A DNA stretch of 64,000 nucleotides from Escherichia coli (GCF_003019035.1 NZ_CP027447.1); one strand, 5' to 3'. Counted from the first letter of the stretch, positions 2,995 through 41,584 are shown. Program-made: numbers and translations. Notes: generated by a model not told the origin, from the sequence alone.

Positions 2995-3000
2995 AATCAA
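2995..3000. repeat. Target-site duplication, low-coordinate copy, (A)ATCAA
   Basis: AATCAA immediately precedes the TG prophage terminus at 3001; the same hexamer follows the CA terminus at 40272..40277. Confidence 0.6.
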
Positions 3001-3045
3001 TGATGCGCCGCGCGATAAACGTACCTATTTCCGTGAGATAAATTA
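3001..3045. repeat. Right-end terminal inverted repeat with two putative transposase-binding motifs
   Basis: TGATGCGCCGCGCGATAAACG...CCGTGAGATAAAT; motifs GCGATAAAC (3012..3020) and CCGTGAGATAAAT (3031..3043) are mirrored at the other end. Confidence 0.55.
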
Positions 3046-3078: not shown

Positions 3079-3651
3079 TTACAACTCAGCTTGAGTTTGA
3101 AGTTCCTCTACAGGGTGATAACGATAAATCGTCGATATACCGATATCGTAAATAATTGCCAACTGTTTCCTGCTATAGCCATTTTTGATCAGCCTTGCTA
3201 TTTGTTCATGTTGCTCTTTTGTCAGTTTCGGACGACGTCCACCAATACGCCCCTGTGCACGTGCTGCTTCAAGTCCGGCCAGTGTTCGTTCGACTATTAA
3301 TTCACGCTCCATTTCCGCTAAAGCCCCCATGACGTGAAAAAAGAAACGTCCCATGGGTGTTGACGTATCAATGCTGTCTGTAAGACTACGGAAGTTAACC
3401 CCTTTTTCCCGCAGTTCCTCAATAAGAGTGATTAGGTGTTTCATGCTTCTGCCCAGCCTGTCCAGCTTCCAGACAACGAGCGTATCTCCTTCTGATAACG
3501 TTCTGAGCAGCTTTTTCAATCCCGGTCGGGCTGACTTTGTTCCGCTGATTTTATCCTCAAAAATCAGTTCACATCCTGCGCAGTTCAGTGCGTTTCGTTG
3601 TAAATCTGTATTCTGGTCATTTGTTGACACACGAATGTAGCCAATTTGCAT
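3079..3651 (-). CDS. Site-specific DNA invertase, serine recombinase of the Gin/Pin/Hin/Cin/Min family
   Basis: 190 aa from the ATG at 3649-3651: MQIGYIRVSTNDQNTDLQRNAL... with the catalytic Ser motif and a C-terminal HTH (GYSRKQLAIIYDIGISTIYRY). The track ORF extends further upstream from a non-ATG start. Confidence 0.9.
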   Translation of the reverse strand: MQIGYIRVSTNDQNTDLQRNALNCAGCELIFEDKISGTKSARPGLKKLLRTLSEGDTLVVWKLDRLGRSMKHLITLIEELREKGVNFRSLTDSIDTSTPMGRFFFHVMGALAEMERELIVERTLAGLEAARAQGRIGGRRPKLTKEQHEQIARLIKNGYSRKQLAIIYDIGISTIYRYHPVEELQTQAEL

Positions 3652-3705
3652 GAAAAATATCCTCTTTGTTTTGTTAAAAATACATAGCTGGTATAGGTGG
3701 GAGTT

Positions 3706-3930
3706 AAGACGAAAACGTTGGTTTGGGGGAAGGCTCTGCACTACCTGTTGGTGTGCCTGTTCCATGGCCGTCAGCCACACCGCCAACAGGGTGGCTGAAA
3801 TGTAACGGTGCAGCATTTTCTTCTGAAATGTACCCCAATCTGGCAAAGGCTTACCCCACGAATAAATTACCGGATTTACGGGGCGAATTTATCCGTGGCT
3901 GGGATGACGGACGAGGTATTGATGCAGGAC
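3706..3930 (+). repeat. Repeat copy A (~215 bp) starting with a candidate invertase crossover site
   Basis: GAAAACG-TT-GGTTTGGGGGAA at ~3706..3731 (core TT 3718-3719) resembles hix/gix half-sites (TTnnnnnAAACC); followed by the conserved tail-collar coding block GEGSALPVGVPVPWPSATPPTGWLKCNGAAFSS... Confidence 0.7.
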
Positions 3931-4184
3931 GAGAGATACTTTCATTTCAGGAAGGCACTATCGTCTCCGGTTTTGATGATAATGATACTGGGGATATCAG
4001 TTCACTTAGCTCAACACAATACGGATTTGGTGACACTCTAACCTCTAATCAATGGGGGGCCATAAATGGCAAAAAGTGGATATTTGATGCATCCAGTAAA
4101 GGTGCACAAAAATATGACTGGTGGGCTTATGTATCAGCTCGTCCGCGTAATATTGCATTTAATTACATCGTAAGAGCGGCATAG
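3723..4184 (+). CDS. Silent alternative tail-fibre C-terminal cassette A (tail-collar half plus variable receptor-binding end)
   Basis: 153 codons opening at TTG, no canonical start; shares the N-terminal ~68 aa and the terminal SARPRNIAFNYIVRAA with the expressed fibre; inverted relative to the fibre gene. Confidence 0.65.
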   Translation: MGEGSALPVGVPVPWPSATPPTGWLKCNGAAFSSEMYPNLAKAYPTNKLPDLRGEFIRGWDDGRGIDAGREILSFQEGTIVSGFDDNDTGDISSLSSTQYGFGDTLTSNQWGAINGKKWIFDASSKGAQKYDWWAYVSARPRNIAFNYIVRAA

Positions 4185-4402
4185 AAACGTTGGTTTGGGG
4201 GAAGGCTCTGCACTGCCCGTTGGTGTACCTGTTCCGTGGCCCTCAGCCACTCCACCAACGGGCTGGCTGAAATGCAACGGCGCAGCATTTTCTTCTGAAG
4301 ATTACCCCAAACTGGCACAGGCTTACCCCGCGAACAAATTACCGGATCTACGGGGTGAATTTATCCGTGGCTGGGATGACGGGCGAGGGATTGATGCAGG
4401 AC
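4179..4402 (+). repeat. Repeat copy B (~215 bp) starting with a candidate invertase crossover site
   Basis: AGAAACG-TT-GGTTTGGGGGAA (core TT 4191-4192) directly after the stop of cassette A; same conserved coding block. Confidence 0.7.
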
Positions 4403-4671
4403 GTGCTTTATTAAGCTTTCAAACTGGGATGCTGGAAAAACACCGCCATATTGTTGTAGCTAACGATGGGTATGACACAAAGGATGAATGGGAGTTGGCC
4501 ACAATTTTCAAAAAAACATATACACAAGGACGGGGACTTGATGCCACAAGTACAGGCGGGAGTCTGATCCCATCACCGACACTTCATTCACGAGGGAGTA
4601 TTGGTAACACTGGTGGTAGTGAAACTCGCCCCCGCAATATCGCATTTAACTATATCGTGAGGGCGGCTTAA
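4195..4671 (+). CDS. Silent alternative tail-fibre C-terminal cassette B
   Basis: 158 codons opening at TTG; conserved N-terminal block and terminal ETRPRNIAFNYIVRAA; distinct variable middle. Confidence 0.65.
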   Translation: MGEGSALPVGVPVPWPSATPPTGWLKCNGAAFSSEDYPKLAQAYPANKLPDLRGEFIRGWDDGRGIDAGRALLSFQTGMLEKHRHIVVANDGYDTKDEWELATIFKKTYTQGRGLDATSTGGSLIPSPTLHSRGSIGNTGGSETRPRNIAFNYIVRAA

Positions 4672-24013: not shown

Positions 24014-25329
24014 CAGAATCCCTCCAGTATATGACCAGCCTCACGGCGGTGACGCGAACGGGCCATCACCGGCCCTGACGGTCCGTCAGTGGCGTTTATT
24101 GCCAGAAAACAGGCCCATGTGCGGTCGGCGTGACCTGCTGCATCACTTTCGGCCACAAAGCGGGGAGTTCCGGTAGGCCCGGTAACCTTGCGAAGTTTAT
24201 GCAGATCACTGCGCAGGACCACATCTCCCGCCGGAATACGCAGGCGGCGGTCCTCAAACATCTCCCTGCCACGGGTCGCGAGGGTGAGCTTGTTCGGGCT
24301 GTTAAATATCACCCCCTCCACACGGCTTCTGCCATGGCGACCCTGTGCATCCTCCACCGGCTTTTCTCCCATCCCGGTCTGATCCATACAGCAGCGCAGC
24401 ACGCGGTAACGGAAAAATACGTCATCCAGCAAAGCATCCTGCTCAGCAAAGGTGGCCCGTTTACGGGTGATGATTTCCCGGGTCCAGTAGACATCCCCCA
24501 CCTGTTCAAGCACCCAGATGACAAACAGGTCATTACGAACAGCAATATCCACCCCCACAAAGCAGGGGCCACCCGTATAGTGCACCGGCAGCCCGGCAGC
24601 ATCGTGCTCCACGCCGTCAATCAGTTCAAACGTCAGCCAGGCCGATGCCTCATCCAGCCACTTCAGTTCAAACTCCTGTGCCCAGGCGTCATCATCGTTG
24701 AGCGCCTGTCGCATCTGTGCAATATCCCGCGGCAGACCATCACGCACGGCACGGTAAATATCCACGATGTGACGTGACCAGACATTTTCAAGGGCGTTGC
24801 TGGTCATCAGTTCATAAAACTTGTTTCCCTTGCCGTTCGGTGTCGATGTCACACGCAGTCTGTAGCCGTTGGAAATGACCGGAAACAGAGCGGTCCAGAT
24901 TTTGCGACTGTCGGCATGGAAGGCGAACTCATCCAGAAAGACGTTAGCCGCAAACCCACGAGCCGTGTCGGGATTCGCCGGCAGGGCCGTGATACGGGAG
25001 CCGCCGGGTAACTCCACCTCAAGCATGGTGTAGCGTTCGCCGCTTTCAGCACGGTAATAACTTTCCACCTCACGGGCCGCCATCCGGTAGGCGCTGCAGT
25101 GTTTTTTCACCCCCTCCACCATGGCTTCTTTTGCCTGACGCTCCCCGCGCGAGAGGATCACCCAGCGTGTACGTCCCCCTGAGGCCTCCGTTTCAAAACA
25201 GTCATCAACCAGTTCCAGCGTGGTGGTGAACGTCTTGCCCGTCTGACGGGCAAACATACCAATCTTGAAACGGGCACGATCCAGAAACCACGACTGCTGA
25301 TAGGGATACAGCTGAATGGCCGCTGTCAT
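24013..25329 (-). CDS. Terminase large subunit (Mu gp28-like)
   Basis: 438 aa with an N-terminal ATPase motif (ARQTGKTF) and C-terminal nuclease-like acidic residues. Confidence 0.8.
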   Translation of the reverse strand: MTAAIQLYPYQQSWFLDRARFKIGMFARQTGKTFTTTLELVDDCFETEASGGRTRWVILSRGERQAKEAMVEGVKKHCSAYRMAAREVESYYRAESGERYTMLEVELPGGSRITALPANPDTARGFAANVFLDEFAFHADSRKIWTALFPVISNGYRLRVTSTPNGKGNKFYELMTSNALENVWSRHIVDIYRAVRDGLPRDIAQMRQALNDDDAWAQEFELKWLDEASAWLTFELIDGVEHDAAGLPVHYTGGPCFVGVDIAVRNDLFVIWVLEQVGDVYWTREIITRKRATFAEQDALLDDVFFRYRVLRCCMDQTGMGEKPVEDAQGRHGRSRVEGVIFNSPNKLTLATRGREMFEDRRLRIPAGDVVLRSDLHKLRKVTGPTGTPRFVAESDAAGHADRTWACFLAINATDGPSGPVMARSRHRREAGHILEGF

Positions 25330-25880
25330 GAGATCACCCCGTAAATCTGTTCCCGCACCATCTTCAGGGTTTCCAGACTCAGGCGGGTGTCGCCGGACTT
25401 CGCCTGTTTTTCCAGAGCATTCATCCGCGCCTCAATTTTTGCCAGCACCTCGGCCCGGAATCGCTTGTGGGTCACCGAAGCCCGTACCAGTGTGGCTATA
25501 CTTTCCGAAGCAGTGGCCAGCAGTTTTGCGCGTTTTGCAGGATCATCACTTTCCCCGATTTCCTGCAGACGCATCAGAACATCCAGCATCTCGGTCTGAA
25601 TCAGTGCCATCATCCCGGCAGAACGATCGTCCGCCTCGTCACCGGCTTCCTGCGCCATCAGACGCGCGGCCTCGGTGGCGGCGCGGATGCGGGCCAGTTG
25701 TCGCTCCATTTTGTAGCCAAACCGCTGCAGGGAAGAGCGGGTGATGACGTATCCCTTCTCCTTCAGCAGGGCTTCCAGCCGGGCATATCCACTGAAGTTA
25801 TTCTCCGTCAGTGCCCGCTCCAGCCAGCGGCGGACCTCCGTCGGCAGAGAATCAATGCTGCTGCGACGTCCCATAATCAC
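25326..25880 (-). CDS. Putative terminase small subunit (Mu gp27-like)
   Basis: 184 aa, helical, immediately upstream of the large subunit. Confidence 0.55.
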   Translation of the reverse strand: MIMGRRSSIDSLPTEVRRWLERALTENNFSGYARLEALLKEKGYVITRSSLQRFGYKMERQLARIRAATEAARLMAQEAGDEADDRSAGMMALIQTEMLDVLMRLQEIGESDDPAKRAKLLATASESIATLVRASVTHKRFRAEVLAKIEARMNALEKQAKSGDTRLSLETLKMVREQIYGVIS

Positions 25881-26188
25881 TCACTCCAGTATTTTTCCGG
25901 GCGGGCAATACCCGGGCCGCATTCCACGGTGTATTCCACAATATCCACACCAAGGCGACTCAGATCGGCAAACCAGTCACCGGACGGTCTCTTCTCCAGC
26001 TCCACCATTTTGCGATCTGCCAGATAATCAAGCTCCCGGCGCAGCTCCAGTTGCGTGGTGTCCGGGTAGATGGCACGGGACACGTCCAGCAGCAACGTTT
26101 CGCTGGCGGTGTAAGGGCGGGTTTTGTTCAGGGCAACCAGCAGACTCCAGCGCAGGGATTCGCGGCGTACCCGGGTAATATCGACCAT
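25877..26188 (-). CDS. Hypothetical protein (Mu gp26-like position)
   Basis: 103-aa ORF in operon overlap with neighbours. Confidence 0.4.
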   Translation of the reverse strand: MVDITRVRRESLRWSLLVALNKTRPYTASETLLLDVSRAIYPDTTQLELRRELDYLADRKMVELEKRPSGDWFADLSRLGVDIVEYTVECGPGIARPEKYWSE

Positions 26189-26514
26189 TATTGACCTCCG
26201 GTATTGCGGTACTGCTGTACCACTTCCAGTTTGTTGTAAAGTGCGTCCAGTTTGGCCTCGATGACTGTCTGGCCACGGATATAATCCTCGCGACGGACAT
26301 AATTCAGCGGTAAATCCGCTTTAAATCGCATAAATTCCTTTTCCAGCTCGCCCCAGTTGGAGGCGGACTGTTGCAGGGCCTGTTCAAGGGAGGCGAATCG
26401 TGCCGCCTGGCGTTCTTCTGTTTTACTGAACAACCATTTGGCGAGCCCTCCAACAAACCCCATGAAGGTGAGCAGAAAACTCACCACCGTCCAGAATTCA
26501 ACCTGCAGTGTCAT
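26188..26514 (-). CDS. Hypothetical membrane protein (Mu gp25-like position)
   Basis: 108 aa with an N-terminal TM helix and coiled-coil tail. Confidence 0.4.
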   Translation of the reverse strand: MTLQVEFWTVVSFLLTFMGFVGGLAKWLFSKTEERQAARFASLEQALQQSASNWGELEKEFMRFKADLPLNYVRREDYIRGQTVIEAKLDALYNKLEVVQQYRNTGGQ

Positions 26515-27164
26515 TTCTGTAATCCTTCCCGTTCATCCAGCAGCGCGTTTATCTGGTTTCGCCAGCGACGACATTGCCCTGCGTTGTCGATGATGTTGGC
26601 GAGGACGTCACGCTGGGAGACACCCGAATTGCGTAACCGGGCGTCAGCGGTTTCAGGTTGCCCGGTCGCTGCGCCAGTGCCGGTGCCAGCGGCGGCAGTT
26701 GCGTCTGAATGACCGGTGTCGACGGATGCGTTGTCATACCCGAGTGCGGCGTTGTACTGGCGCACGAAACCGCGAGTAAACACGCACTCAATGGGATGGC
26801 TCTTACCTTTTTCATCAATCCAGCGCTGTGTGACATCGTTAATTTGCCCCTGTAGTTGTTTGTTCAGGCTCTCCAGTTGAGCAATCTGCTCAAGATAACC
26901 GGCTTCAGCCCGCTGCCCGGCGGCCACCTGCTCCTGATACCGTTTTGCCCATGCTCGCAACGCAGCGTTCTCAAGCATTGCCTGCTCCGTTTTGTATGTG
27001 TCGAATGCTGACTGCAACTCACTGATCGCCTTATCGCCGTCGCGCGTGGCGTTTTCATGCCCGCTTTTGTAGCCCAGGTAATAAAGTCCAATCAGAAAAG
27101 CATTTATGAGCACAGCCAGCAGCAGACTGCGCCACGGCAGATTTTTTAGCAGGTTAGTCCACAC
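26511..27164 (-). CDS. Inner-membrane spanin (Rz-like)
   Basis: 217 aa, N-terminal TM helix then coiled coil; directly downstream of the endolysin. Confidence 0.6.
   Translation of the reverse strand: MWTNLLKNLPWRSLLLAVLINAFLIGLYYLGYKSGHENATRDGDKAISELQSAFDTYKTEQAMLENAALRAWAKRYQEQVAAGQRAEAGYLEQIAQLESLNKQLQGQINDVTQRWIDEKGKSHPIECVFTRGFVRQYNAALGYDNASVDTGHSDATAAAGTGTGAATGQPETADARLRNSGVSQRDVLANIIDNAGQCRRWRNQINALLDEREGLQK
26549..26815 (-). CDS. Outer-membrane lipoprotein spanin (Rz1-like), fully embedded in the Rz-like gene
   Basis: Alternative-frame ORF MKKVRAIPLSAC... with lipobox LSAC and a proline-rich mature part. Confidence 0.5.
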   Translation of the reverse strand: MKKVRAIPLSACLLAVSCASTTPHSGMTTHPSTPVIQTQLPPLAPALAQRPGNLKPLTPGYAIRVSPSVTSSPTSSTTQGNVVAGETR

Positions 27165-27882
27165 AGCTGCCGCCCCCCCATGTCAGATAACGGGGGGCCA
27201 GTTCGTGCAGGATGCGCTGCGGATAATGGCGGTTCTCCCGCCAGCTGGCAGCATTGCGTCCGGCATTCACCGTGGCGACATGCCCGAACCAGCGGGTACT
27301 GTCCAGGCCTTTCTGTGATGCTAGCTGCCTGTCCCGTTGTACCCAGCCCAGACCACCGTTATAGCCCGACAGTGTCATGGCCATACGTTCGCAGTCACTG
27401 GCGGCGCTGACGCGCTGCCACAGCCAGCGGTCATAGCTGACCAGCGCCCGGATGGCCCATGCCGGATTAAACGGCTCACGGCTGTTAAGCCCCGGCATCA
27501 GCTGACTTATCCAGTCAGCAGTGGCGGGCATGAACTGCGCCAGTCCCTGAGCGCCAGCCGGCGAGACCGCATCAGGTCGCCAGCCGCTTTCCTGATGCAG
27601 TTGCGCAGCGAAATCGGCCACCGGCGCAGACAGTCCCCATTCAAGCCGGGCATTACGGATCACATCATCGCGATACTGCAGCGCAGCCTGCGGAGGCTGC
27701 GCTGCGCGGGCCTGACTGAAGAAGCCGCCACACCAGAGCAGCCAGACAATCACCAGGTTGCCAGCAAGCTGCCACCAGAAGCTGTATTTATCGTTACGTG
27801 GTTCTCCGTGTCTGATGGCGGTTACGCCCAGACCAAAGGCGAACAGAATAATGAGGGTGATTTGAGGCCAGTTCATGGTCAC
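27154..27882 (-). CDS. Endolysin, SLT-type lytic transglycosylase with N-terminal signal-anchor
   Basis: 242 aa; hydrophobic N-terminus followed by ...LHQESGWRPDAVSPAGAQGLAQFMPATADW... Confidence 0.8.
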   Translation of the reverse strand: MTMNWPQITLIILFAFGLGVTAIRHGEPRNDKYSFWWQLAGNLVIVWLLWCGGFFSQARAAQPPQAALQYRDDVIRNARLEWGLSAPVADFAAQLHQESGWRPDAVSPAGAQGLAQFMPATADWISQLMPGLNSREPFNPAWAIRALVSYDRWLWQRVSAASDCERMAMTLSGYNGGLGWVQRDRQLASQKGLDSTRWFGHVATVNAGRNAASWRENRHYPQRILHELAPRYLTWGGGSCVD

Positions 27883-28229
27883 AGTCCTGTTGCCACAGCC
27901 AGACAGACCGCTGCAACAATCAGTGCACGGCGGATTAACGCAGCAGAAAATACAAGGTGAAGGCCGGTCTGCACAGGGAAACGCCCTTCAGCCATCAGCC
28001 TGTCTTCATGTTTCAGGTACTGACCGGGACGGGCTTTGGGGAAGAGTGAACGGTCAAGCCAGTAACCCAGCACTGCTGCCAGCGTGATGAGTGCCAGCTT
28101 GTAGATCACAACAGGCAGCTGCTGTGGCGAGACCAGAGCGATGGTGCCCAGCAACAGCACTGAGGTCAGCAGCCAGCCGCTGAGGCGAGGTTTTTTAACA
28201 GGGGGAATGAATTTTTTCAGGTTTTTCAT
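27879..28229 (-). CDS. Putative holin (3 TM segments)
   Basis: ATG at 28227-28229 preceded by AAGGAG (MKNLKKFIPP...); three hydrophobic helices; first gene of the lysis cassette. The track ORF begins at an upstream GTG. Confidence 0.5.
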   Translation of the reverse strand: MKNLKKFIPPVKKPRLSGWLLTSVLLLGTIALVSPQQLPVVIYKLALITLAAVLGYWLDRSLFPKARPGQYLKHEDRLMAEGRFPVQTGLHLVFSAALIRRALIVAAVCLAVATGL

Positions 28230-28359
28230 GTGTGTCTCCTTGTCTGGTGGAGACAGCATCACAAATACAGGGCGCGAAGGATTTTAAAGCGCGTTAAGAG
28301 AGCCGGGGATACGGGATGTGCAGGATAAACGATGAATTATTCACAGAGGAGAATACGAT

Positions 28360-28785
28360 ATGACGCAGACACTGAATCCGGTCATCACTGTCACCGTGTC
28401 CGGTCCTGTGGGCAGCGGTAAAAGTTACGTACTGGCGCGGATAGAAGAGATGGTGAAACAGGAACCCGGAAACAGCGTCATTGTCGATGCTGCTGACGTG
28501 GAGAATGAGCGCCGTATGAGTGGGGATGATCTGAGCACATGGCAGAAACCACAGGCAGGTACAATTATCCGACTGGAAGAATACACTGAGCGGGTAACTC
28601 TATCATATAGTGAGGAGCGCATTTGCCTGACGAATGCACTGCTGGAAGTTATATGTCCCGAAGGCAAGAGCCCCTGGATACTACCCGATGCTGTACATGC
28701 CGCAATTGCTGCATTGTTCGTATTATACGATCAGGAGCTGGTTTTAATGGAGTTATGTAAGGTTATTAAAGCTACAGAAAAGTAA
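28360..28785 (+). CDS. Hypothetical small P-loop protein (Walker A GPVGSGKS), orphan accessory gene
   Basis: 141-aa ORF with GAGGAG RBS; Walker A at residues 15-22; divergent from the late operon; no family recognised. Confidence 0.6.
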   Translation: MTQTLNPVITVTVSGPVGSGKSYVLARIEEMVKQEPGNSVIVDAADVENERRMSGDDLSTWQKPQAGTIIRLEEYTERVTLSYSEERICLTNALLEVICPEGKSPWILPDAVHAAIAALFVLYDQELVLMELCKVIKATEK

Positions 28786-28860
28786 AAATATTATCGGTAT
28801 CCTGTGGATGATAAAAACACGCTACCCACAGGATTACTTGTATAAAACCGTGGATAACAA

Positions 28861-29382
28861 CTAGATAAAACCATCATAGAAGTCATCCCTCTTACGAGAC
28901 CTGATACGAACTGGATTTGGCTCTCCTTTCAACCATACAGCACTGTTTTGACCACAAACCGGACACATGCAAAAACTGTCTTTTCGTATATGCAGGATAC
29001 TTTTCAGGTTTTTGGAATCAAAACAAGTCTGGCAAATATAATGTTCAGTTTCATCGTTTCCCGTATAACGATAAGCATAGAAGCCTTTTTCTTCACTCAG
29101 TAACGTCAGTTTATAATTACCGCGAAAGTTAAGAAGGTCTTCCAGAGAGCGAATTTTCTCTTCCAGATTGGTAATGGTTTTTTGCTGTTCTCCTAGCTTG
29201 CTCGTTACCTCAAAGAACTGCCCCTGTGCTTCAATAATTTTACTCTGTAATTCACTGGTCAAAGCGGCCTGTTTTATTTGATCACGCTCTTTTATTATTT
29301 TCTGAGCAGTACTGCTGATATAGCCAAGAGCTGTTAATAAAGCGTTTGTATCCATAGCACCCCGATATCCTCTAAACCACAT
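28861..29382 (-). CDS. Hypothetical coiled-coil protein with C-terminal zinc-ribbon (CxxC...CxCxxC), orphan accessory gene
   Basis: 173 aa (or 164 aa from the second ATG at 29355); heptad-like N-terminal half; C-terminal YICQTC...CMCPVCG; visibly AT-rich DNA. Confidence 0.55.
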   Translation of the reverse strand: MWFRGYRGAMDTNALLTALGYISSTAQKIIKERDQIKQAALTSELQSKIIEAQGQFFEVTSKLGEQQKTITNLEEKIRSLEDLLNFRGNYKLTLLSEEKGFYAYRYTGNDETEHYICQTCFDSKNLKSILHIRKDSFCMCPVCGQNSAVWLKGEPNPVRIRSRKRDDFYDGFI

Positions 29383-29422
29383 TAACAGAAATCACTTCAT
29401 CCCTGCCGCATCATGAAAGAAC

Positions 29423-29454
29423 GACCAGCCCGGCACCCGAAAGCCGGGCTGGTC
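29423..29454. other. Perfect 12-bp GC-rich stem-loop in the divergent intergenic region
   Basis: GACCAGCCCGGC-acccgaaa-GCCGGGCTGGTC between the 173-aa gene start and the methyltransferase gene. Confidence 0.5.
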
Positions 29455-29557
29455 ATCGTCCCACAGGAATGCACTGTGAGCCGACCGAGGTTCAGTCAGT
29501 CTCGCGAGACCAGACTAGCCTGCCATATTTTTAATAATTGTAAAAGGCTTACAGATT

Positions 29558-30322
29558 ATGAAAATGCAGTCATTACCCATCGTTCCATGGATTGGTGGCA
29601 AACGCCGCCTTGCAAAACACATTCTGCCGCTGTTTCCGGCGCATGAATGTTATGTGGAGCCGTTTTGTGGGGCAGCAGCGCTCTATTTTCTTAAGACACC
29701 CGGCAAGATCGAAGTCATTAATGATATCAACGGTGAACTGGTGAATCTGTACCGGGTGGTAAAGCATCACCTGGAAGAATTTGTCCACCAGTTCAAATGG
29801 GCGCTGGTCAGCCGTCAGATCTACAAGTGGCTGCAGATCACCCCGGAAGAAACACTGACGGATATCCAGCGTGCAGCACGGTTCTACTACCTCCAGAAGC
29901 AGGCGTTTGGCGGCAAGGTAGCAGAACACAGCTTCGGTACCTCCACCACATCCCCGCCACGCTTCAACCTGCTGCGTATTGAAGAAGAACTGTCAGCGGC
30001 ACACCTGCGACTTTCCAGAACAGTCATAGAACACATGGACTGGCAACAGTGCATTGAGCGCTATGATCGTCCGCACACGCTGTTCTACTGTGATCCGCCG
30101 TATCTGGGTACGGAAGGCTATGGTGTGGATTTTCCTGAAGGGAACTACTCGCGGCTGGCAGAGCTGGCCCGGTGCATCAGAGGAAAAATGATAATTTCGG
30201 TGAACGACATCCCGCAGATGCGCGAGGTGTTCACTGGACTGAACATACAGACAGTGAATATCAACTACAGTCTGGCGGGGAAACCCACGCCGCGCCGTGA
30301 ACTGATAATCTGCAACTTCTGA
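29558..30322 (+). CDS. DNA adenine methyltransferase, Dam-like
   Basis: 254 aa with the N-terminal AdoMet-binding region (FCGAAALYF) and the catalytic DPPY motif (YCDPPYLG). Confidence 0.85.
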   Translation: MKMQSLPIVPWIGGKRRLAKHILPLFPAHECYVEPFCGAAALYFLKTPGKIEVINDINGELVNLYRVVKHHLEEFVHQFKWALVSRQIYKWLQITPEETLTDIQRAARFYYLQKQAFGGKVAEHSFGTSTTSPPRFNLLRIEEELSAAHLRLSRTVIEHMDWQQCIERYDRPHTLFYCDPPYLGTEGYGVDFPEGNYSRLAELARCIRGKMIISVNDIPQMREVFTGLNIQTVNINYSLAGKPTPRRELIICNF

Positions 30323-30438: not shown

Positions 30439-30816
30439 TCAGCCTGTAAATTTACTTGGTTTGGGTTGAGTATAGAATCGCCCAACCTCAAGAAATGAGC
30501 GTCGTTGTTCCGGAGTCATTTCATCAAATGCGTCCATTAATTTTTGTTTTTCTGGTGACATTTTTGGGACAACATTGGTCATTACATCCCCTCTCTGTCC
30601 TGTAACAACGTAAAGCACGTCAAGCCCTAAAGTAGCCCAAATTGCCAAAGCATCTGCTCCGGGAGCGGATTCATCCTTTTCCCACCGCAATTGGCTTTTA
30701 TAGGATGCCCCCACCAATTCAGCAAACTCAGACTGACTAAATCCTAGGCGGTTTCGTTCTTCTTTTAATCGTGAGCCAAGTGACATTTTTGTCCAATACC
30801 TATTTACATGTCCCAT
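30439..30816 (-). CDS. Phage repressor, XRE-family HTH
   Basis: 125 aa with HTH LGFSQSEFAELVGASYKSQLRWEKDE; divergent from the early operon. Confidence 0.7.
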   Translation of the reverse strand: MGHVNRYWTKMSLGSRLKEERNRLGFSQSEFAELVGASYKSQLRWEKDESAPGADALAIWATLGLDVLYVVTGQRGDVMTNVVPKMSPEKQKLMDAFDEMTPEQRRSFLEVGRFYTQPKPSKFTG

Positions 30817-32353: not shown

Positions 32354-34135
32354 ATGAATGCTGCCCTGACTGAACGACTGGTTTATGTCGCCCGCGCGGC
32401 ACGTGACGCGGGGCATGGTAAACGCGGTGCAATATACGACGCTGCCTGTGCTGAACTTGGCATGTCCCGCGCCACTCTGCTGCGCAGGCTGAAGGAGGTC
32501 TCTGTGACTGATAAACGCAAAAAACGCGCCGATGCCGGGCGCAGCGCTCTGACCCGCGACGAAGCCGCGCTGATATCTGCCACACTGCGTGAGGCCACCC
32601 GCAAGAACGGTAAGCGTCTCTATTCCATCGCAGATGCAGTGGAAACCCTGCGGGCTAACGGCTTTATCTCCGCAGGCAGAACAGATGAAACCACCGGTGA
32701 GTTTTTCCCGTTGTCCGAAGATGCCATCAGTCGTGCCCTGCGTAACTATGGCCTGCACCCGGAACAACTGGATGCCCCTGCACCGCATACCGAAGTGGCC
32801 AGTCTGCATCCCAATCATGTCTGGCAGATTGACGCCTCACTCTGCACGCTTTACTACCTGAGCAATGGACATAAAGGGCTGCAGGTGATGGACAGCGCGA
32901 AGTTCTACAAGAACAAGCCCGCTAACCTTGCCCGTATCGCCAGTGACCGCGTGTGGAGTTACGAGATTACCGACCATGCCAGCGGCTGGATTTACGTTGA
33001 GTATGTGACGGGCGCGGAATCCGGTGAGAACCTGTGTTCTGTGCTTATCAACGCCATGCAGGAGCGCGGTGGCGCAGACGTGCTGCACGGCGTGCCGAAA
33101 ATACTCTATCTCGACCCTGGCTCGGCAAACACCGCGGGTATGACGAAAAACATGTGCCGCTCACTGGGCATCGACCTGATAGCGCACAGGCCGCATAACG
33201 CCCGCGCCACCGGACAGGTGGAAAAGGCGCGTGACATTATCGAACGCAAGCTGGAGCCGGGTCTGAAGTTCCGGCCGGTTCACAGTCTGGAAGAACTCAA
33301 CGCGCTGGCCGCGAAATGGCGCAGCCACTTTAACGCCACGGCTGTTCACAGCCGCCACGGTAAAACCCGCACGGATATCTGGCTGAAGATTACTGCTGAG
33401 CAGCTGAAAAAAGCGCCTTCCGTTGAAGTATGCCGTGAACTGGCTGTGGCGACACCAGAACTCCGCAAAGTCACGCCAAAACTTCGTGTCTCGTTCCGGG
33501 GCACTGAATTTGACGTATCAACGGTACCGGGCGTACTGGTTGGTGAAAAACTGATGATTACCCGTAACCCATGGCGCAGCGATGTGGCACAGGTGGTTCT
33601 GACCGGTGAGGACGGCCACGAGACGTTCTTCCTGGTCGAAGAGGTCAGAAAGAACGAGTTTGGCTTTGCTGAAGGCGCGGCGGTATTTGGCGAAAGTTAC
33701 AAAGCCCTGCCGGAAACCCCGGCACAGATGGCGGCAAAAGAAACCGAAGCGCTGGTTACCGGTACAGACAACGCCGCAGATGCAGCCGCCGCACGCAAGG
33801 CGAAGGCGCTGCCGTTCGGCGGGCGGCTTGACCCGTATAAACATATCGACGACACCACACTTCCGGCCTATATGCCGAAGCGTGGTCAGGCCTCTGACGT
33901 ACGCGGGCCGCGCACTGAACAACGTCCCATGACTCATGTGGAGGCCGCGAAAGCCCTGCGCGATAAGTTCAGCGCCGACGGCCTTACCTGGACGCCGGAA
34001 CATTACCGCCAGTTAACGGCACAGTACCCGGACGGCGTACCGGAAGCTGCACTGGATGAAGTCATGGCCACGCTGACCACGCCGGCCCGCAGCAGCGTTA
34101 TCAGCAGCGTTATCAGCATTGTTAACGGCAACTGA
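32354..34135 (+). CDS. DDE transposase (integrase catalytic core; functional analogue of Mu A)
   Basis: 593 aa; candidate catalytic region HVWQIDAS...YLDPGSANTAG; followed by the transposition ATPase gene. Confidence 0.8.
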   Translation: MNAALTERLVYVARAARDAGHGKRGAIYDAACAELGMSRATLLRRLKEVSVTDKRKKRADAGRSALTRDEAALISATLREATRKNGKRLYSIADAVETLRANGFISAGRTDETTGEFFPLSEDAISRALRNYGLHPEQLDAPAPHTEVASLHPNHVWQIDASLCTLYYLSNGHKGLQVMDSAKFYKNKPANLARIASDRVWSYEITDHASGWIYVEYVTGAESGENLCSVLINAMQERGGADVLHGVPKILYLDPGSANTAGMTKNMCRSLGIDLIAHRPHNARATGQVEKARDIIERKLEPGLKFRPVHSLEELNALAAKWRSHFNATAVHSRHGKTRTDIWLKITAEQLKKAPSVEVCRELAVATPELRKVTPKLRVSFRGTEFDVSTVPGVLVGEKLMITRNPWRSDVAQVVLTGEDGHETFFLVEEVRKNEFGFAEGAAVFGESYKALPETPAQMAAKETEALVTGTDNAADAAAARKAKALPFGGRLDPYKHIDDTTLPAYMPKRGQASDVRGPRTEQRPMTHVEAAKALRDKFSADGLTWTPEHYRQLTAQYPDGVPEAALDEVMATLTTPARSSVISSVISIVNGN

Positions 34136-38146: not shown

Positions 38147-38351
38147 ATCTGTTGTATGTGCCCTGTTCTGGTATTGTTTTGTCGGTTGGTGTACTGCTGA
38201 ACTGCACCGCCGTTCAGGGTTTTATTCACGTTACAGTGGTGCCGGCTACTGGATTAGCTGGTCGGTGATGTTCCTGTGCTGGCCTGTGGCGCTTCCTTTA
38301 TATGTCGGTTATATCGGTGGCGCAGGTAAAAGGAGCAACGATGATGACTAA
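38136..38351 (+). CDS. Small membrane protein
   Basis: 71 aa from the ATG at 38136 after a G-rich RBS; two hydrophobic helices. Confidence 0.4.
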   Translation: MTAESVVCALFWYCFVGWCTAELHRRSGFYSRYSGAGYWISWSVMFLCWPVALPLYVGYIGGAGKRSNDDD

Positions 38352-38793
38352 ACAACGTCTTATCCAGCTCATTCATATTGCCCGTAATGAACTGGGTATG
38401 GATGAAGACACCTACCGCCAGATGTTACAGGGGCTGACCGGTAAAGCCTCAACCAAAGGAATGGATACCACACAACTAAACTGCGTGCTGGAATCCATGA
38501 AAAGGAAAGGCTTTCGCGTTAAGCCTGCCGGAAAAGCCAGCTCCGGTTTACCGCTGGATAACCATCCGCAGTCCAGGAAAATCCGTGCGCTATGGCTTGA
38601 AATGGCTGCTGCCGGCATTGTTCGTGACCGTTCAGAAAATGCATTAGCGCGGTGGATCAAGCGGGAAACGGGCATCAGCGCCCTGCGCTGGCTCAATACT
38701 GAACAGGCAAGCAGTGTTATTGAGAAACTGAAGAAGTGGCAGCACAGAGCTGCGGGAGTAAAACATGAGCGACCTGAATCAGTTTCGAAGTAA
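38341..38793 (+). CDS. GemA/gp16-like protein
   Basis: MMTKQRLIQLIHIARNELGMDEDTYRQMLQGLTGKAS... matches the GemA family pattern. Confidence 0.6.
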   Translation: MMTKQRLIQLIHIARNELGMDEDTYRQMLQGLTGKASTKGMDTTQLNCVLESMKRKGFRVKPAGKASSGLPLDNHPQSRKIRALWLEMAAAGIVRDRSENALARWIKRETGISALRWLNTEQASSVIEKLKKWQHRAAGVKHERPESVSK

Positions 38794-39163
38794 AGGGCCG
38801 GAACTCCTGGTGGAGCTGGCACAGCATACCTCTGAGACCGTTCGCGAGATTATTGATATTGAGCCCGCAATTGCCGACCAGATTGGTCAGGCCGTCGCGA
38901 ACCGAATGATGCAGGTCTGGGGCGGGCAAAACGTTTATTTCCCGATGGGCATGGTATGGAAGGTCAGTCAGCGCGACCGGGAAATCTTCAGGGAGTTTAA
39001 CGGACGCAACCACCACGAACTGGCCCGCAAGTTTGGTGTTTCGCTTCAGTGGGTCTACAGCGTGGTTAAGCGGGTCAGAAAAGAAGAACTGGATCGGATG
39101 CAGGGCAGGTTGTTTGATGAAGATCTGCCAGAGGAGACGAAAGACGTTAACAAATCCAGATAA
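38765..39163 (+). CDS. Mor/C-family transcription activator
   Basis: C-terminal GGQNVYFPMG...RDREIFREFNGRNHHELARKFGVSLQWVYSVVKR matches the Mor/C pattern (GGxxVYIPxG...FNGRN..EL...YGV...VY). Confidence 0.7.
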   Translation: MSDLNQFRSKGPELLVELAQHTSETVREIIDIEPAIADQIGQAVANRMMQVWGGQNVYFPMGMVWKVSQRDREIFREFNGRNHHELARKFGVSLQWVYSVVKRVRKEELDRMQGRLFDEDLPEETKDVNKSR

Positions 39164-39205
39164 TTCCTGCTTGTTAAAGTCCTTTCAAAAATCTCCTTAT
39201 TGTAT

Positions 39206-39240
39206 AAAAGCACGGTAGACCCCTTACCGTGCTTTTTTTA
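39206..39240 (+). terminator. Rho-independent terminator after the Mor-like gene
   Basis: GCACGGTA-gacccct-TACCGTGC followed by a run of seven T. Confidence 0.7.
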
Positions 39241-39277
39241 TGCTCTCTCTTTAGTATTCAGGATGCAGGGAGAAAAT

Positions 39278-39910
39278 ATGTTTGACGTTTCGTTGTTAAA
39301 TCTGCCATGGGCAACACTGGTGACCCTGACCAGTGGCTATATTGGGTATTTTATTGCGAATGTGGGACTGAAGGATCACCACAAGCCCATTGAGGTGACT
39401 TTTTCTTCGCTGATTTTTGGCCTGACAGCAATGATGGCTTACCAGGCTGTTATGTGGGCAGGTCTGAATGCCTGGCTGGCAACACCACCAGCACTTCTGT
39501 GTGCCGTTACATGCGGTGCGTGGTGGCGCAGGTACGGTCGCAAATGGATGTACAGATTACTGTGGAATAATGATATTTCATGGTCTGACGATACCAGCTC
39601 AGCATGGCAGGCAATGTTTGATCAAACAGGCTTCAGCGTTACCGAGGTCAGAGTGATTCTTCGCGATGGTTCCGGTATGATGTCACGGCTGCCAGGGAAC
39701 TTTGAAGAGTGGCCTAACGGTCCGTTTACCCTGGGGAATAAAGGCGATATGGTTCTTTACGTCACGCACAGCAGCCCTTCAGGCAGTAACGAATGGGAAG
39801 AGTATAAAGGCGTGGTTGATAAGTACTGGGGAGCTCTGGCAACCTATATTCCAGCAGATCAGATTGCCAGAGTGGAGATCAGGCGCGTTCGTGCAACGAA
39901 CGATGAATGA
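39278..39910 (+). CDS. Hypothetical membrane protein (3 predicted TM helices plus soluble C-terminal domain), terminal accessory gene
   Basis: 210 aa from the ATG at 39278 with RBS AGGGAG; follows a terminator; last gene before the prophage end. Confidence 0.55.
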   Translation: MFDVSLLNLPWATLVTLTSGYIGYFIANVGLKDHHKPIEVTFSSLIFGLTAMMAYQAVMWAGLNAWLATPPALLCAVTCGAWWRRYGRKWMYRLLWNNDISWSDDTSSAWQAMFDQTGFSVTEVRVILRDGSGMMSRLPGNFEEWPNGPFTLGNKGDMVLYVTHSSPSGSNEWEEYKGVVDKYWGALATYIPADQIARVEIRRVRATNDE

Positions 39911-40226
39911 TGTTTATTTTTTCCCTGGGGCAGGGGCTGCCGGCATAGTGGTTTTATTGGCAGAGGAAGACGATTCTCCTTTTCTACCGGAATCGCGCTC
40001 GAACGTCACGATGTGCTTGCTTTTGGGCTTTTCTGAGTAATCCAGGCTATCATGCTTATTGTTTTGAGTAGTCATTGGAATCATCCTTTTTGTTGCGGGT
40101 CATGTTTCAGCAAACTCGATTCTAAGTTGCCAGGAAGGATGATTTCAATGCCCGACTTATCTATCGTATAGCGGAAAAGAATTTCAGTTCTGTTCACCAG
40201 AACCCATGTTAACCCACTCCAATTCG

Positions 40227-40271
40227 TTATTTATCTCACGGATCCCCCTTCATTTATCTCATGTCTGATCA
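40227..40271. repeat. Left-end terminal inverted repeat with two putative transposase-binding motifs
   Basis: Reverse complement reads TGATCAGACATGAGATAAATG...CCGTGAGATAAAT, mirroring the right end. Confidence 0.55.
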
Positions 40272-40277
40272 AATCAA
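40272..40277. repeat. Target-site duplication, high-coordinate copy, (A)ATCAA
   Basis: AATCAA immediately after the CA terminus at 40271; identical to 2995..3000. Confidence 0.6.
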
Positions 40278-40435: not shown

Positions 40436-40903
40436 ATGATTAAACGCGTATTGGTTGTTTCAATGGTAGGTCTGTCTCTTGTCGGTTGTGTTAATAACGA
40501 CACCCTGTCAGGGGATGTTTATACCGCTTCTGAAGCGAAACAAGTACAGAATGTCAGCTATGGCACCATCGTTAACGTACGTCCGGTACAGATTCAGGGC
40601 GGTGATGATTCCAACGTTATCGGTGCAATTGGCGGTGCTGTTCTTGGTGGTTTCCTGGGGAATACTGTTGGCGGCGGAACCGGGCGTTCTCTGGCTACTG
40701 CAGCAGGCGCTGTTGCAGGTGGCGTAGCCGGTCAGGGCGTACAGAGTGCAATGAACAAAACGCAGGGTGTCGAGCTGGAAATTCGTAAAGACGATGGTAA
40801 TACCATCATGGTGGTACAGAAACAAGGCAACACTCGTTTCTCTCCGGGCCAACGTGTCGTACTGGCCAGCAATGGCAGTCAGGTGACCGTTTCCCCGCGC
40901 TAA
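40436..40903 (+). CDS. slyB: Outer membrane lipoprotein SlyB
   Basis: 155 aa MIKRVLVVSMVGLSLVGCVNN... with lipobox and Gly-rich repeats. Confidence 0.9.
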   Translation: MIKRVLVVSMVGLSLVGCVNNDTLSGDVYTASEAKQVQNVSYGTIVNVRPVQIQGGDDSNVIGAIGGAVLGGFLGNTVGGGTGRSLATAAGAVAGGVAGQGVQSAMNKTQGVELEIRKDDGNTIMVVQKQGNTRFSPGQRVVLASNGSQVTVSPR

Positions 40904-40949: not shown

Positions 40950-41384
40950 TCACCCTTTGGCCTGTAACTCAATGATATTATGCTCAAGTTTTGCGATGAG
41001 CTTAATCAGTTGTTCCAGTTCCTCTGCGGAGATGCCATGTAAAATTTCCGCGCGGGTTTTGTTAATAACAGCTTCCATTTCGCTGATCAGCGGCTCTGCC
41101 TTTTCCGTCAGTTTAATACGTTTAGCCCGACGATCGCTGGCACAAGTTTGACGCGAAATTAACCCTTTTTCTTCCAGTTGGTCCAGAGTACGGACCAGTG
41201 ATGGCTGCTCGATGCCAATCGCTTTTGCCAGTTGAATTTGCGACTGGTCTGGAGGTAACTGATGGATATTGTGTAACGTAACCCAATGGGTTTGTGTTAA
41301 CTCCAGCGGTTTCAGGCGATGGTCTATCAGAGCACGCCATATGCGCACCAACCGTGCCAGATCAGAACCTAGTGGCGATTCCAA
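40950..41384 (-). CDS. slyA: MarR-family transcriptional regulator SlyA
   Basis: ...[33 protein letters not shown]...; start taken at the TTG with AAGGAG spacing (the track ORF starts two codons upstream at 41390). Confidence 0.85.
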
Positions 41385-41584
41385 TTTCATCTCCTTATAA
41401 TTAGCTTGCTAAGATATTATGCGGCTTTTAGAATAGTGTGCAGCAATTGTATTGCTAAAACAAATGTATTGCTGCATTTGGTTACCGTCAGACATATTTT
41501 TCAGAAATTGCGCGTAAATTTTTCGCACTTAAAGAATATTTATTAATCTAACGCAATATATTCGGTCGTAAAGGAATCTACTTT

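Follow-up and report, generated by a model that had tools for sequence, protein, structure and literature searches.

The DNA between the mor gene and the right transposition end of a transposable prophage of Escherichia coli is a self-contained, horizontally mobile accessory cassette (a moron) composed of two genes. The first (39278..39910, plus strand) encodes a 210-aa inner-membrane protein, annotated as hypothetical in RefSeq (WP_000460689.1) and belonging to phrog_12870. The second (39914..40075, minus strand) encodes a hydrophilic, proline-rich protein of 53 aa (MTTQNN...DYSEKPK...PAAPAPGKK; RefSeq WP_001571575.1; phrog_15726). The two genes represent a conserved convergent module which is promiscuous among temperate phages. 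All coordinates refer to the window, i.e., the whole stretch of 64,000 nucleotides of E. coli DNA that was analysed.

Prophage setting and optional presence of the cassette

The prophage is of the BcepMu type, is 37.3 kb long (3001-40271), and lies between anmK (1776-2885, NCBIfam check) and an ORF at 40436-40903 which we take, by its K-12 position alone, to be slyB; slyA follows at 40950-41390 (NCBIfam check). The limits of the match to near-identical copies located elsewhere in chromosomes were taken as the prophage ends. Other E. coli genomes contain the empty site, as rebuilt from the two flanks and a single AATCAA, with 100% identity across 244 bp. This 6-bp direct repeat flanks the prophage at 2995-3000 and 40272-40277 and is present in one copy in the empty sites of other E. 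coli. The termini read TGAT...ATCA at 3001 and 40271, and the count of 6 bp depends on setting the ends at TG/CA; the target duplications of Mu are 5 bp long.

The late genes, including those for the holin, the endolysin, the spanin, and the small terminase (25326-28262), are on the minus strand. The early operon is on the plus strand and consists of a DDE transposase (32354-34135), a B-like ATPase, Gam, a gp16/GemA-like gene (38302-38793), and Mor (38765-39163, phrog_532). This order of early and late genes is the BcepMu arrangement, and the Mor homologue of BcepMu is gp01, its terminal gene. The 210-aa gene follows Mor at the right end of the prophage, beside the slyB-position ORF, in agreement with what had been described earlier from the sequence. 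The right end is 165 bp upstream of that ORF, in the anmK-slyB intergenic region; slyB regulation in this strain could be changed by the insertion and by the signals that face inward and outward at the end of the prophage.

Most related prophages lack the cassette-specific DNA block (39124..40231). Its left boundary is within the last ~13 codons of mor and its right boundary 40 bp before the end of the prophage; alignments to cassette-free relatives, namely the prophages of an ST131 strain (L046) and of TW14425 (L047) and phage PhiKM (L044), stop at 39123 and resume at 40232. In these three, Mor is followed by ~150 bp and then by the prophage end; in them, as in BcepMu, Mor is the last gene. 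A search of 5426 complete E. coli genomes identified 639 with a gp16-Mor region at least 80% identical to that of the window, and 129 of the 639 contain the cassette. The same site is therefore occupied in some and vacant in other closely related phage genomes, as expected of a moron; insulation by a terminator of its own, a second moron trait, is provided by the covarying upstream hairpin described below. Overall, ~2% of the complete E. coli genomes carry the cassette, uropathogenic and ST131 strains among them, as do many Alpha- and Gammaproteobacteria, as prophage or island cargo.

The last ~13 Mor codons differ between cassette-bearing and cassette-free prophages because the junction between shared and cassette-specific DNA (39124) sits inside mor. 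The subterminal ~190 bp (40085-40231) also differ from those of cassette-free relatives and are almost identical in a diverged E. coli allele (L048). It seems that the whole right-end module is exchanged as one block.

The pair is also found in prophages of other architectures. In a lambdoid prophage (L064), the small gene is located directly downstream of a cI-like S24 repressor. In an HK97-like prophage, the pair is at the head-tail junction, between head and neck genes; in a P2/HP1-like prophage, it is at the end of the tail module; in a Desulfobulbus prophage, it is between the early genes and the terminase. An integrase-bearing element carries it as well. This distribution across many unrelated prophage settings is what defines a moron. 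Some family members are found in an ordinary chromosomal context, beside carA or within small islets; a function in housekeeping or stress would suit these as well as one in defence. A homologue with 29% identity is the terminal gene of the 20-kb record of Synechococcus phage Ssp-JY41 (L002, PP438431.1, 1-744), so that the family reaches cyanobacterial phages; it is the only homologue in the deposited-phage collection.

The two genes and their transcription signals

Relatives of the 210-aa protein were collected from IMG/VR, GTDB genomes, metagenomes, and assemblies, and a pair was scored when an opposite-strand ORF ended within -45 to +60 nt of the stop of the large gene. By this measure, a convergent ORF of 38-80 aa abuts or overlaps the stop in 41 of 45 distinct loci, as compared to 19% of control positions (binomial P ~3e-25, for loci that are not fully independent). 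The paired loci span Escherichia, Salmonella, Serratia, Citrobacter, Bradyrhizobium, Devosia, Mesorhizobium, Afipia, and metagenomes. In many of them the large and small ORFs overlap by 4-33 nt, and no terminator between the two convergent ORFs was found on reading the window sequence; the 3′ ends of the two mRNAs would thus be mutually antisense.

The preliminary description had recognized here a self-contained moron unit with one gene, followed by 360 bp of noncoding end sequence. The prophage indeed ends 361 bp past the stop of the large gene (40271), but this DNA holds the 53-aa gene. Likewise, the unit is optional, has its own upstream terminator, and recurs in unrelated prophages, but it comprises two genes rather than one.

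The 53-aa protein is probably disordered. Its gene is preceded by an RBS (AAGGA, 40084..40088, minus strand), whose AGG is invariant in the enterobacterial alignment, and by a sigma-70-type promoter (40119..40148, minus strand) with 10 of 12 consensus matches. The promoter consists of a -35 element TTGAAA (40148-40143), an 18-nt spacer, and a -10 element TAGAAT (40124-40119) and is directed into the prophage, facing the 210-aa gene in antisense orientation. Neither hexamer varies among the Escherichia, Serratia, Citrobacter, and Salmonella versions; in the enterobacterial versions, ATTGAAA, the 18-nt distance, TAGAATC, the RBS, and the ATG are all retained, and the flanking bases vary. The small proteins diverge fast, with 18-53% identity to the 53-aa protein of the window, and share a common layout consisting of an N-terminal M-[TS]-x-[KN], one to three motifs of the type [DN]-[YF]-[ST]-[EP] / N-Y-[TV]-P-x-T, and a PPxPxKK tail. 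They lack a signal peptide and any leader-like segment, and most of them are not cationic. No known sRNA family of Rfam matches at the locus. Upstream of the promoter of the small gene, just within the end of the prophage, there is a weak terminator-like hairpin (40186..40204, minus strand; 7 pairs, 3 of them GC, and a poor T tail), which might, speculatively, block read-in from host DNA.

The transcription signals of the large gene are of a different kind. An intrinsic terminator after the Mor-like gene (39206..39240, plus strand), already recognized in the preliminary description, is well supported. The hairpin (39206-39236) has a 13-pair stem and a T-run to 39240, with a dG of -19.1 kcal/mol and a z of -6.1 versus shuffles. 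In eight diverged loci the stem covaries, with 93% of the cells paired and compensatory changes in 5 of the 13 pairs; slid controls give 37-61%. Because this terminator is conserved, the 210-aa gene is taken to be insulated from early-operon transcription. The hairpin also forms on the minus strand (-16.7 kcal/mol), and the terminator may work in both directions. The RBS AGGGAG (39265..39270, plus strand), 7 nt upstream of the ATG at 39278, is likewise where it had been placed, as are the ATG and the ORF itself.

A candidate weak sigma-70 promoter is located inside the terminator (39216..39244, plus strand), with its -35 element TAGACC (39216-39221) in the hairpin loop, a 17-nt spacer, and a -10 element TATGCT (39239-39244). 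Its 8 of 12 consensus matches put it below the threshold of the promoter scan used. The layout T(A/G)GA(C/T)N, 17-18 nt, TAT(T/G)CT is repeated in four different hairpin variants. A dedicated promoter of the 210-aa gene is only weakly indicated. In some relatives, the large gene is translationally coupled to an upstream ORF, without the terminator.

The predicted architecture of the 210-aa protein, i.e., three N-terminal TM helices followed by a soluble C-terminal domain, agrees with the earlier proposal. Hydrophobic helices extend over residues ~11-27, 37-60, and 65-82, and the AlphaFold2 model, built on an alignment of 87 relatives, has a pLDDT of 94.6. Positive charges are present in loop 1 (KDHHK) and after TM3 (RRYGRK); by the positive-inside rule, the topology would be N-out/C-in and the C-terminal domain therefore cytoplasmic. 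In the predicted model, this domain comprises an N-terminal helix and a strongly bent five-strand antiparallel sheet, which is the arrangement of the Sm/LSm fold, and it is modelled as a small β-barrel with an Sm-like fold. In its three TM helices and Sm-like C-terminal domain, the protein resembles MscS and the small barrels of the Sm/LSm/Hfq type. In MscS, too, three TM helices precede a cytoplasmic β domain of the Sm type, and Sm domains normally form rings of 6-7 members. TM1 carries a conserved glycine/tyrosine-rich packing motif, and G20, G30, and W83 are invariant in the 87 sequences. H35, S101, D104, D157, T163, and H164 are retained by each of the 15 close relatives or by at least 90% of the 87; rather than a pore regulator, such conserved Asp, His, Ser, and Thr residues could indicate an enzyme or a ligand site.

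The family of the 210-aa protein consists of 392 clusters at 50% identity, nearly all of 200-220 aa and with full-length matches, and the function of phrog_12870 is unassigned. No family of NCBIfam or Pfam matches the protein itself, which has no match to Pfam PF19865 (DUF6338) even at E ≤ 10. Among the 87 relatives, 9 match DUF6338 at E ≤ 1e-3 and 21 at E ≤ 0.1, and one relative 55% identical to the 210-aa protein is DUF6338 by its NCBI name. These partial matches point to a sister or outlying subfamily of DUF6338. A profile search of 5.8 billion proteins for a bridge to canonical DUF6338 returned the same marginal members only, and a profile search of PDB sequences returned noise only. No model of PADLOC-DB v2 matches the 210-aa or the 53-aa protein at E ≤ 1, and no homologue that has been characterised was found. 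Literature searches on the two protein accessions and their PHROG families found nothing, and those on morons of BcepMu-type E. coli prophages found no title or abstract bearing on the 210-aa gene.

A holin or lysis role of the 210-aa protein was considered and rejected. The prophage has a complete lysis cassette of holin, endolysin, and spanin at 26511-28262, the holin being phrog_1528 (27879-28262), and because this set lies elsewhere, the 210-aa protein is not the lysis protein of this phage. Class I holins are proteins of ~70-130 aa encoded beside the endolysin; the protein described here has 210 aa and a folded C-terminal domain, and its gene is 11 kb from the lysis cassette. Structural similarity of the N-terminal three-helix bundle to LydA-type holins is weak (E 0.02-0.7) and not significant.

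Proposed function and alternative explanations

It is possible, and this is the reading tentatively preferred here, that the cassette is a toxin-antitoxin-like or exclusion/abortive-infection module in which a membrane effector is restrained by a small protein and/or an antisense transcript. According to this proposal, the 210-aa protein would be a potentially harmful membrane effector, held at a low level or inactive by the upstream terminator, its own weak promoter, and its partner. The small gene would be transcribed strongly and constitutively from the predicted sigma-70 promoter, and its product would restrain the effector. The partner might act as a protein, through physical interaction with the cytoplasmic barrel. 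The PxxPxKK tail resembles the ligands of SH3-like small barrels. When the two proteins were modelled by AlphaFold2 from a fused paired alignment, the small protein stayed disordered and its last 10 residues were slightly raised (pLDDT 56-59); this contact is therefore unsupported by the model. Alternatively, the partner might exert antisense control as a transcript. Loss of the labile partner, or its displacement by competition, as might follow the shut-off of host expression by an infecting phage, would allow the effector to oligomerise and to damage the membrane. Abortive infection, exclusion of the incoming phage, or post-segregational killing would result. If the cassette is a defence or toxin-antitoxin module, it represents a compact family of ~0.9 kb absent from the defence catalogues searched here, and an “empty” transposon end would encode a conserved regulator.

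Several known systems share part of this anatomy. Lambda rexA-rexB and HK97 gp15 are, like the cassette, optional inserts in a conserved prophage backbone, with their own transcription signals and an inner-membrane protein; indeed, the small gene of the lambdoid prophage holds the position of rexAB, directly downstream of the cI-like repressor. However, RexB and HK97 gp15 have no sequence or fold relationship to the 210-aa protein, rexA and rexB are co-directional whereas the cassette genes are convergent, and RexA is a sensor whereas the cassette partner is a disordered peptide of ~50 aa. The CBASS effector Cap15 (S-2TM-β) shares with the 210-aa protein a short N-terminal TM anchor and a cytoplasmic β-barrel of ~100 aa, in a total of ~200 aa. 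In Cap15, ligand sensing by the barrel leads to disruption of the membrane. Among the AFDB relatives of the 210-aa protein, one (26% identity, TM-score 0.88) has an automatic S-2TM-β label; two TM helices and a Cap15-type barrel beside a CD-NTase, the combination that characterizes this group, are not what the cassette encodes.

A closer layout is found in the type I toxin-antitoxin systems of B. subtilis prophages, txpA/RatA and bsrG/SR4, in which convergent genes overlap at their 3′ ends. These systems and the cassette are both prophage-borne, with a membrane-protein gene facing a convergent partner, transcripts overlapping at the 3′ ends, and a strong constitutive promoter of the partner. 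The toxins of type I systems are hydrophobic peptides of less than 60 aa, whereas the putative toxin of the cassette has 210 aa and a folded cytoplasmic domain, and the partner RNA of the cassette encodes a conserved protein. The convergent 3′ overlap is thus present, and the small hydrophobic toxin and the noncoding antisense RNA by which type I systems are defined are not.

Outside the 210-aa subfamily, a similar association has been reported in P. stutzeri, where three unannotated proline-rich proteins adjoin a DUF6338 gene and were detected by peptidomics with high spectral counts; two of them are MVSSPG...TAPPPPKK and MTKKIGG...PPPPPKKGG (PMC10433244). The same study observed that the DUF6338 domain occurs in biosynthetic gene clusters and raised an antimicrobial role; its authors considered the proline-rich peptides not conserved outside P. 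stutzeri (PMC10433244). In the literature on DUF6338, it is the only paper mentioning the domain. Its locus has a membrane protein of ~200 aa beside proline-rich proteins of 36-47 aa ending in PPPPKK(GG), a tail as in many cassette partners, and both the N- and the C-terminal features of these small proteins are also found in many of the partners. The small genes of P. stutzeri number three and share the strand of the membrane gene, whereas the cassette has one, on the opposite strand. Because the P. stutzeri peptides were detected beside a DUF6338 gene, proline-rich peptides of such kind are really made, and the association extends beyond the 210-aa subfamily. If the preferred reading is true, it would provide a function for overlooked proline-rich small proteins that are abundant by published proteomics.

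In P. stutzeri CP036186.1 (2646334-2667116), ~14 kb separate the DUF6338 gene and the three peptides from genes for a DUF1156 methylase and for a helicase pair of SNF2/PLD type, presumably DISARM-type defence genes by their look, which hints at a defence-island context of that locus.

A more specific form of the preferred reading can be formulated, although it is unlikely to hold in full. The cassette would then represent a new and widespread class of two-component membrane modules, transported as cargo by temperate phages of many kinds, in which membrane-anchored Sm/SH3-like barrels form a ring or pore. The proline-rich peptide, fast-evolving and produced constitutively, would gate this assembly through docking of its PxxPxKK tail on the barrel, and its mRNA would in addition serve for convergent antisense regulation. 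Peptide and mRNA together would be a hybrid protein-and-RNA antitoxin in control of an abortive-infection or exclusion effector; the P. stutzeri DUF6338 and PPPPKK genes would be the co-directional version of this system.

Another explanation, which we regard as having a rather low probability, is that the cassette is a module for peptide production or processing, in which the small protein would be the product or substrate, i.e., a secreted, modified, or proline-rich antimicrobial-like peptide, and the 3TM-barrel protein its membrane-bound factor for maturation, export, or immunity. The partner is indeed short and conserved, with N-Y-[TV]-P-x-T repeats and a tail of the PPPPKK type, the conserved polar residues of the large protein (from H35 to H164, as given above) could form a catalytic or binding site, and the abundance of the P. 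stutzeri peptides beside a DUF6338 gene, with the remarks on biosynthetic clusters and antimicrobials, agrees with such a role (PMC10433244). However, the small proteins have the non-cationic and leaderless character noted above, a divergence down to 18-53% identity is unusual for a bioactive product, and convergent overlapping transcription is an odd design for co-production. Moreover, the C-terminal domain is like no known protease, transporter, or RiPP enzyme fold.

It is comparably doubtful that the cassette is a pure addiction module, i.e., a type I- or II-like toxin-antitoxin pair which only stabilizes the prophage or island and has no anti-phage role. Its anatomy would be identical to that of the preferred reading, and the B. 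subtilis modules mentioned above have the same convergent layout; the location at the very tip of a transposable element and the predicted strong constitutive promoter of the small gene are in line with it. On the other hand, ~80% of the closely related prophages persist without the cassette, and the large size of the putative toxin and the coding capacity of the antisense partner depart from type I systems. Since many prophage toxin-antitoxin systems also act in defence, addiction differs from the preferred reading mainly in phenotype.

A role as an accessory of the lytic cycle is quite improbable. In such a role, read-through from the early operon past the terminator would express the large gene for lysis timing (as an antiholin or holin), for sibling-phage exclusion in lytic growth, or for a membrane step of transposition or packaging. 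The gene is directly downstream of, and co-directional with, the early operon ending in gemA-mor. In Mu, the middle operon is placed after the early operon. Furthermore, no strong promoter of its own was found for the large gene, the gene of some relatives is translationally coupled to an upstream phage ORF, and the matches of the three-helix bundle to LydA-type holins, weak as they are, belong on this side. Against this stand the absence of the gene from most close relatives and from BcepMu, the complete lysis cassette together with the nonsignificance of the holin-like matches, and the occurrence of the pair in phages of unrelated architecture and in non-phage islets; the conserved terminator also argues for insulation from early transcription.

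A single-gene moron, i.e., a superinfection-exclusion membrane protein followed by noncoding end DNA, is very unlikely: the terminator, the RBS, the membrane protein, and the accessory position are all confirmed, but a partner gene, conserved together with its promoter, occupies the supposedly noncoding DNA and contradicts this anatomy, and the near-universal co-inheritance of the two genes is ignored.

End sequences and other cargo of the prophage

The terminal 40 bp of the right end (40232..40271; ...TCATTTATCTCATGTCTGATCA) are common to the cassette-free relatives and are presumed to be the transposase-binding end. A subterminal motif, TTTTCAGTATGTGAAA, is common to cassette-bearing and cassette-free right ends of several genera; in loci L032, L034, L049, and L053, it is ~100-140 nt upstream of the start of the small ORF, on the minus strand. 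In PhiKM (L044, ~2950-2970) the motif is present as its reverse complement, TTTCACATACTGTAA, and its counterpart in the window is TTCTGGTGAACAGAAC. The motif may be a binding site of the transposase or of a host factor.

Other genes are found between mor and the right end in related elements. In Klebsiella phage KP12 (L043, 2910-3239) this site carries a 110-aa gene, and in E. coli NRZ14408 (L048, ~3360-3610) an extra ORF is present between mor and the cassette. Locus L032 (5743-6000) and its kin have at this site an 85-aa ORF, translationally coupled to the membrane-protein gene, which by its sequence motifs we take to be DUF551-like. The site behaves as a cargo hotspot and, for annotation purposes, is worth mining in BcepMu-type prophages.

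A second probable cargo region (28360-30322) is located between the late and early operons and adjoins a repressor-like gene (30439-30816). It contains a DNA methyltransferase (29558-30322, phrog_56) and two function-unassigned ORFs (28360-28785, plus strand; 28861-29382, minus strand). At the left end (3079-4671), an invertase-like serine recombinase (3079-3846) adjoins oppositely oriented tail-fibre and assembly ORFs, which suggests an invertible host-range segment of the type of Mu gin or P1 cin. Near-identical copies of these left-end invertase segments are also present on E. coli plasmids.
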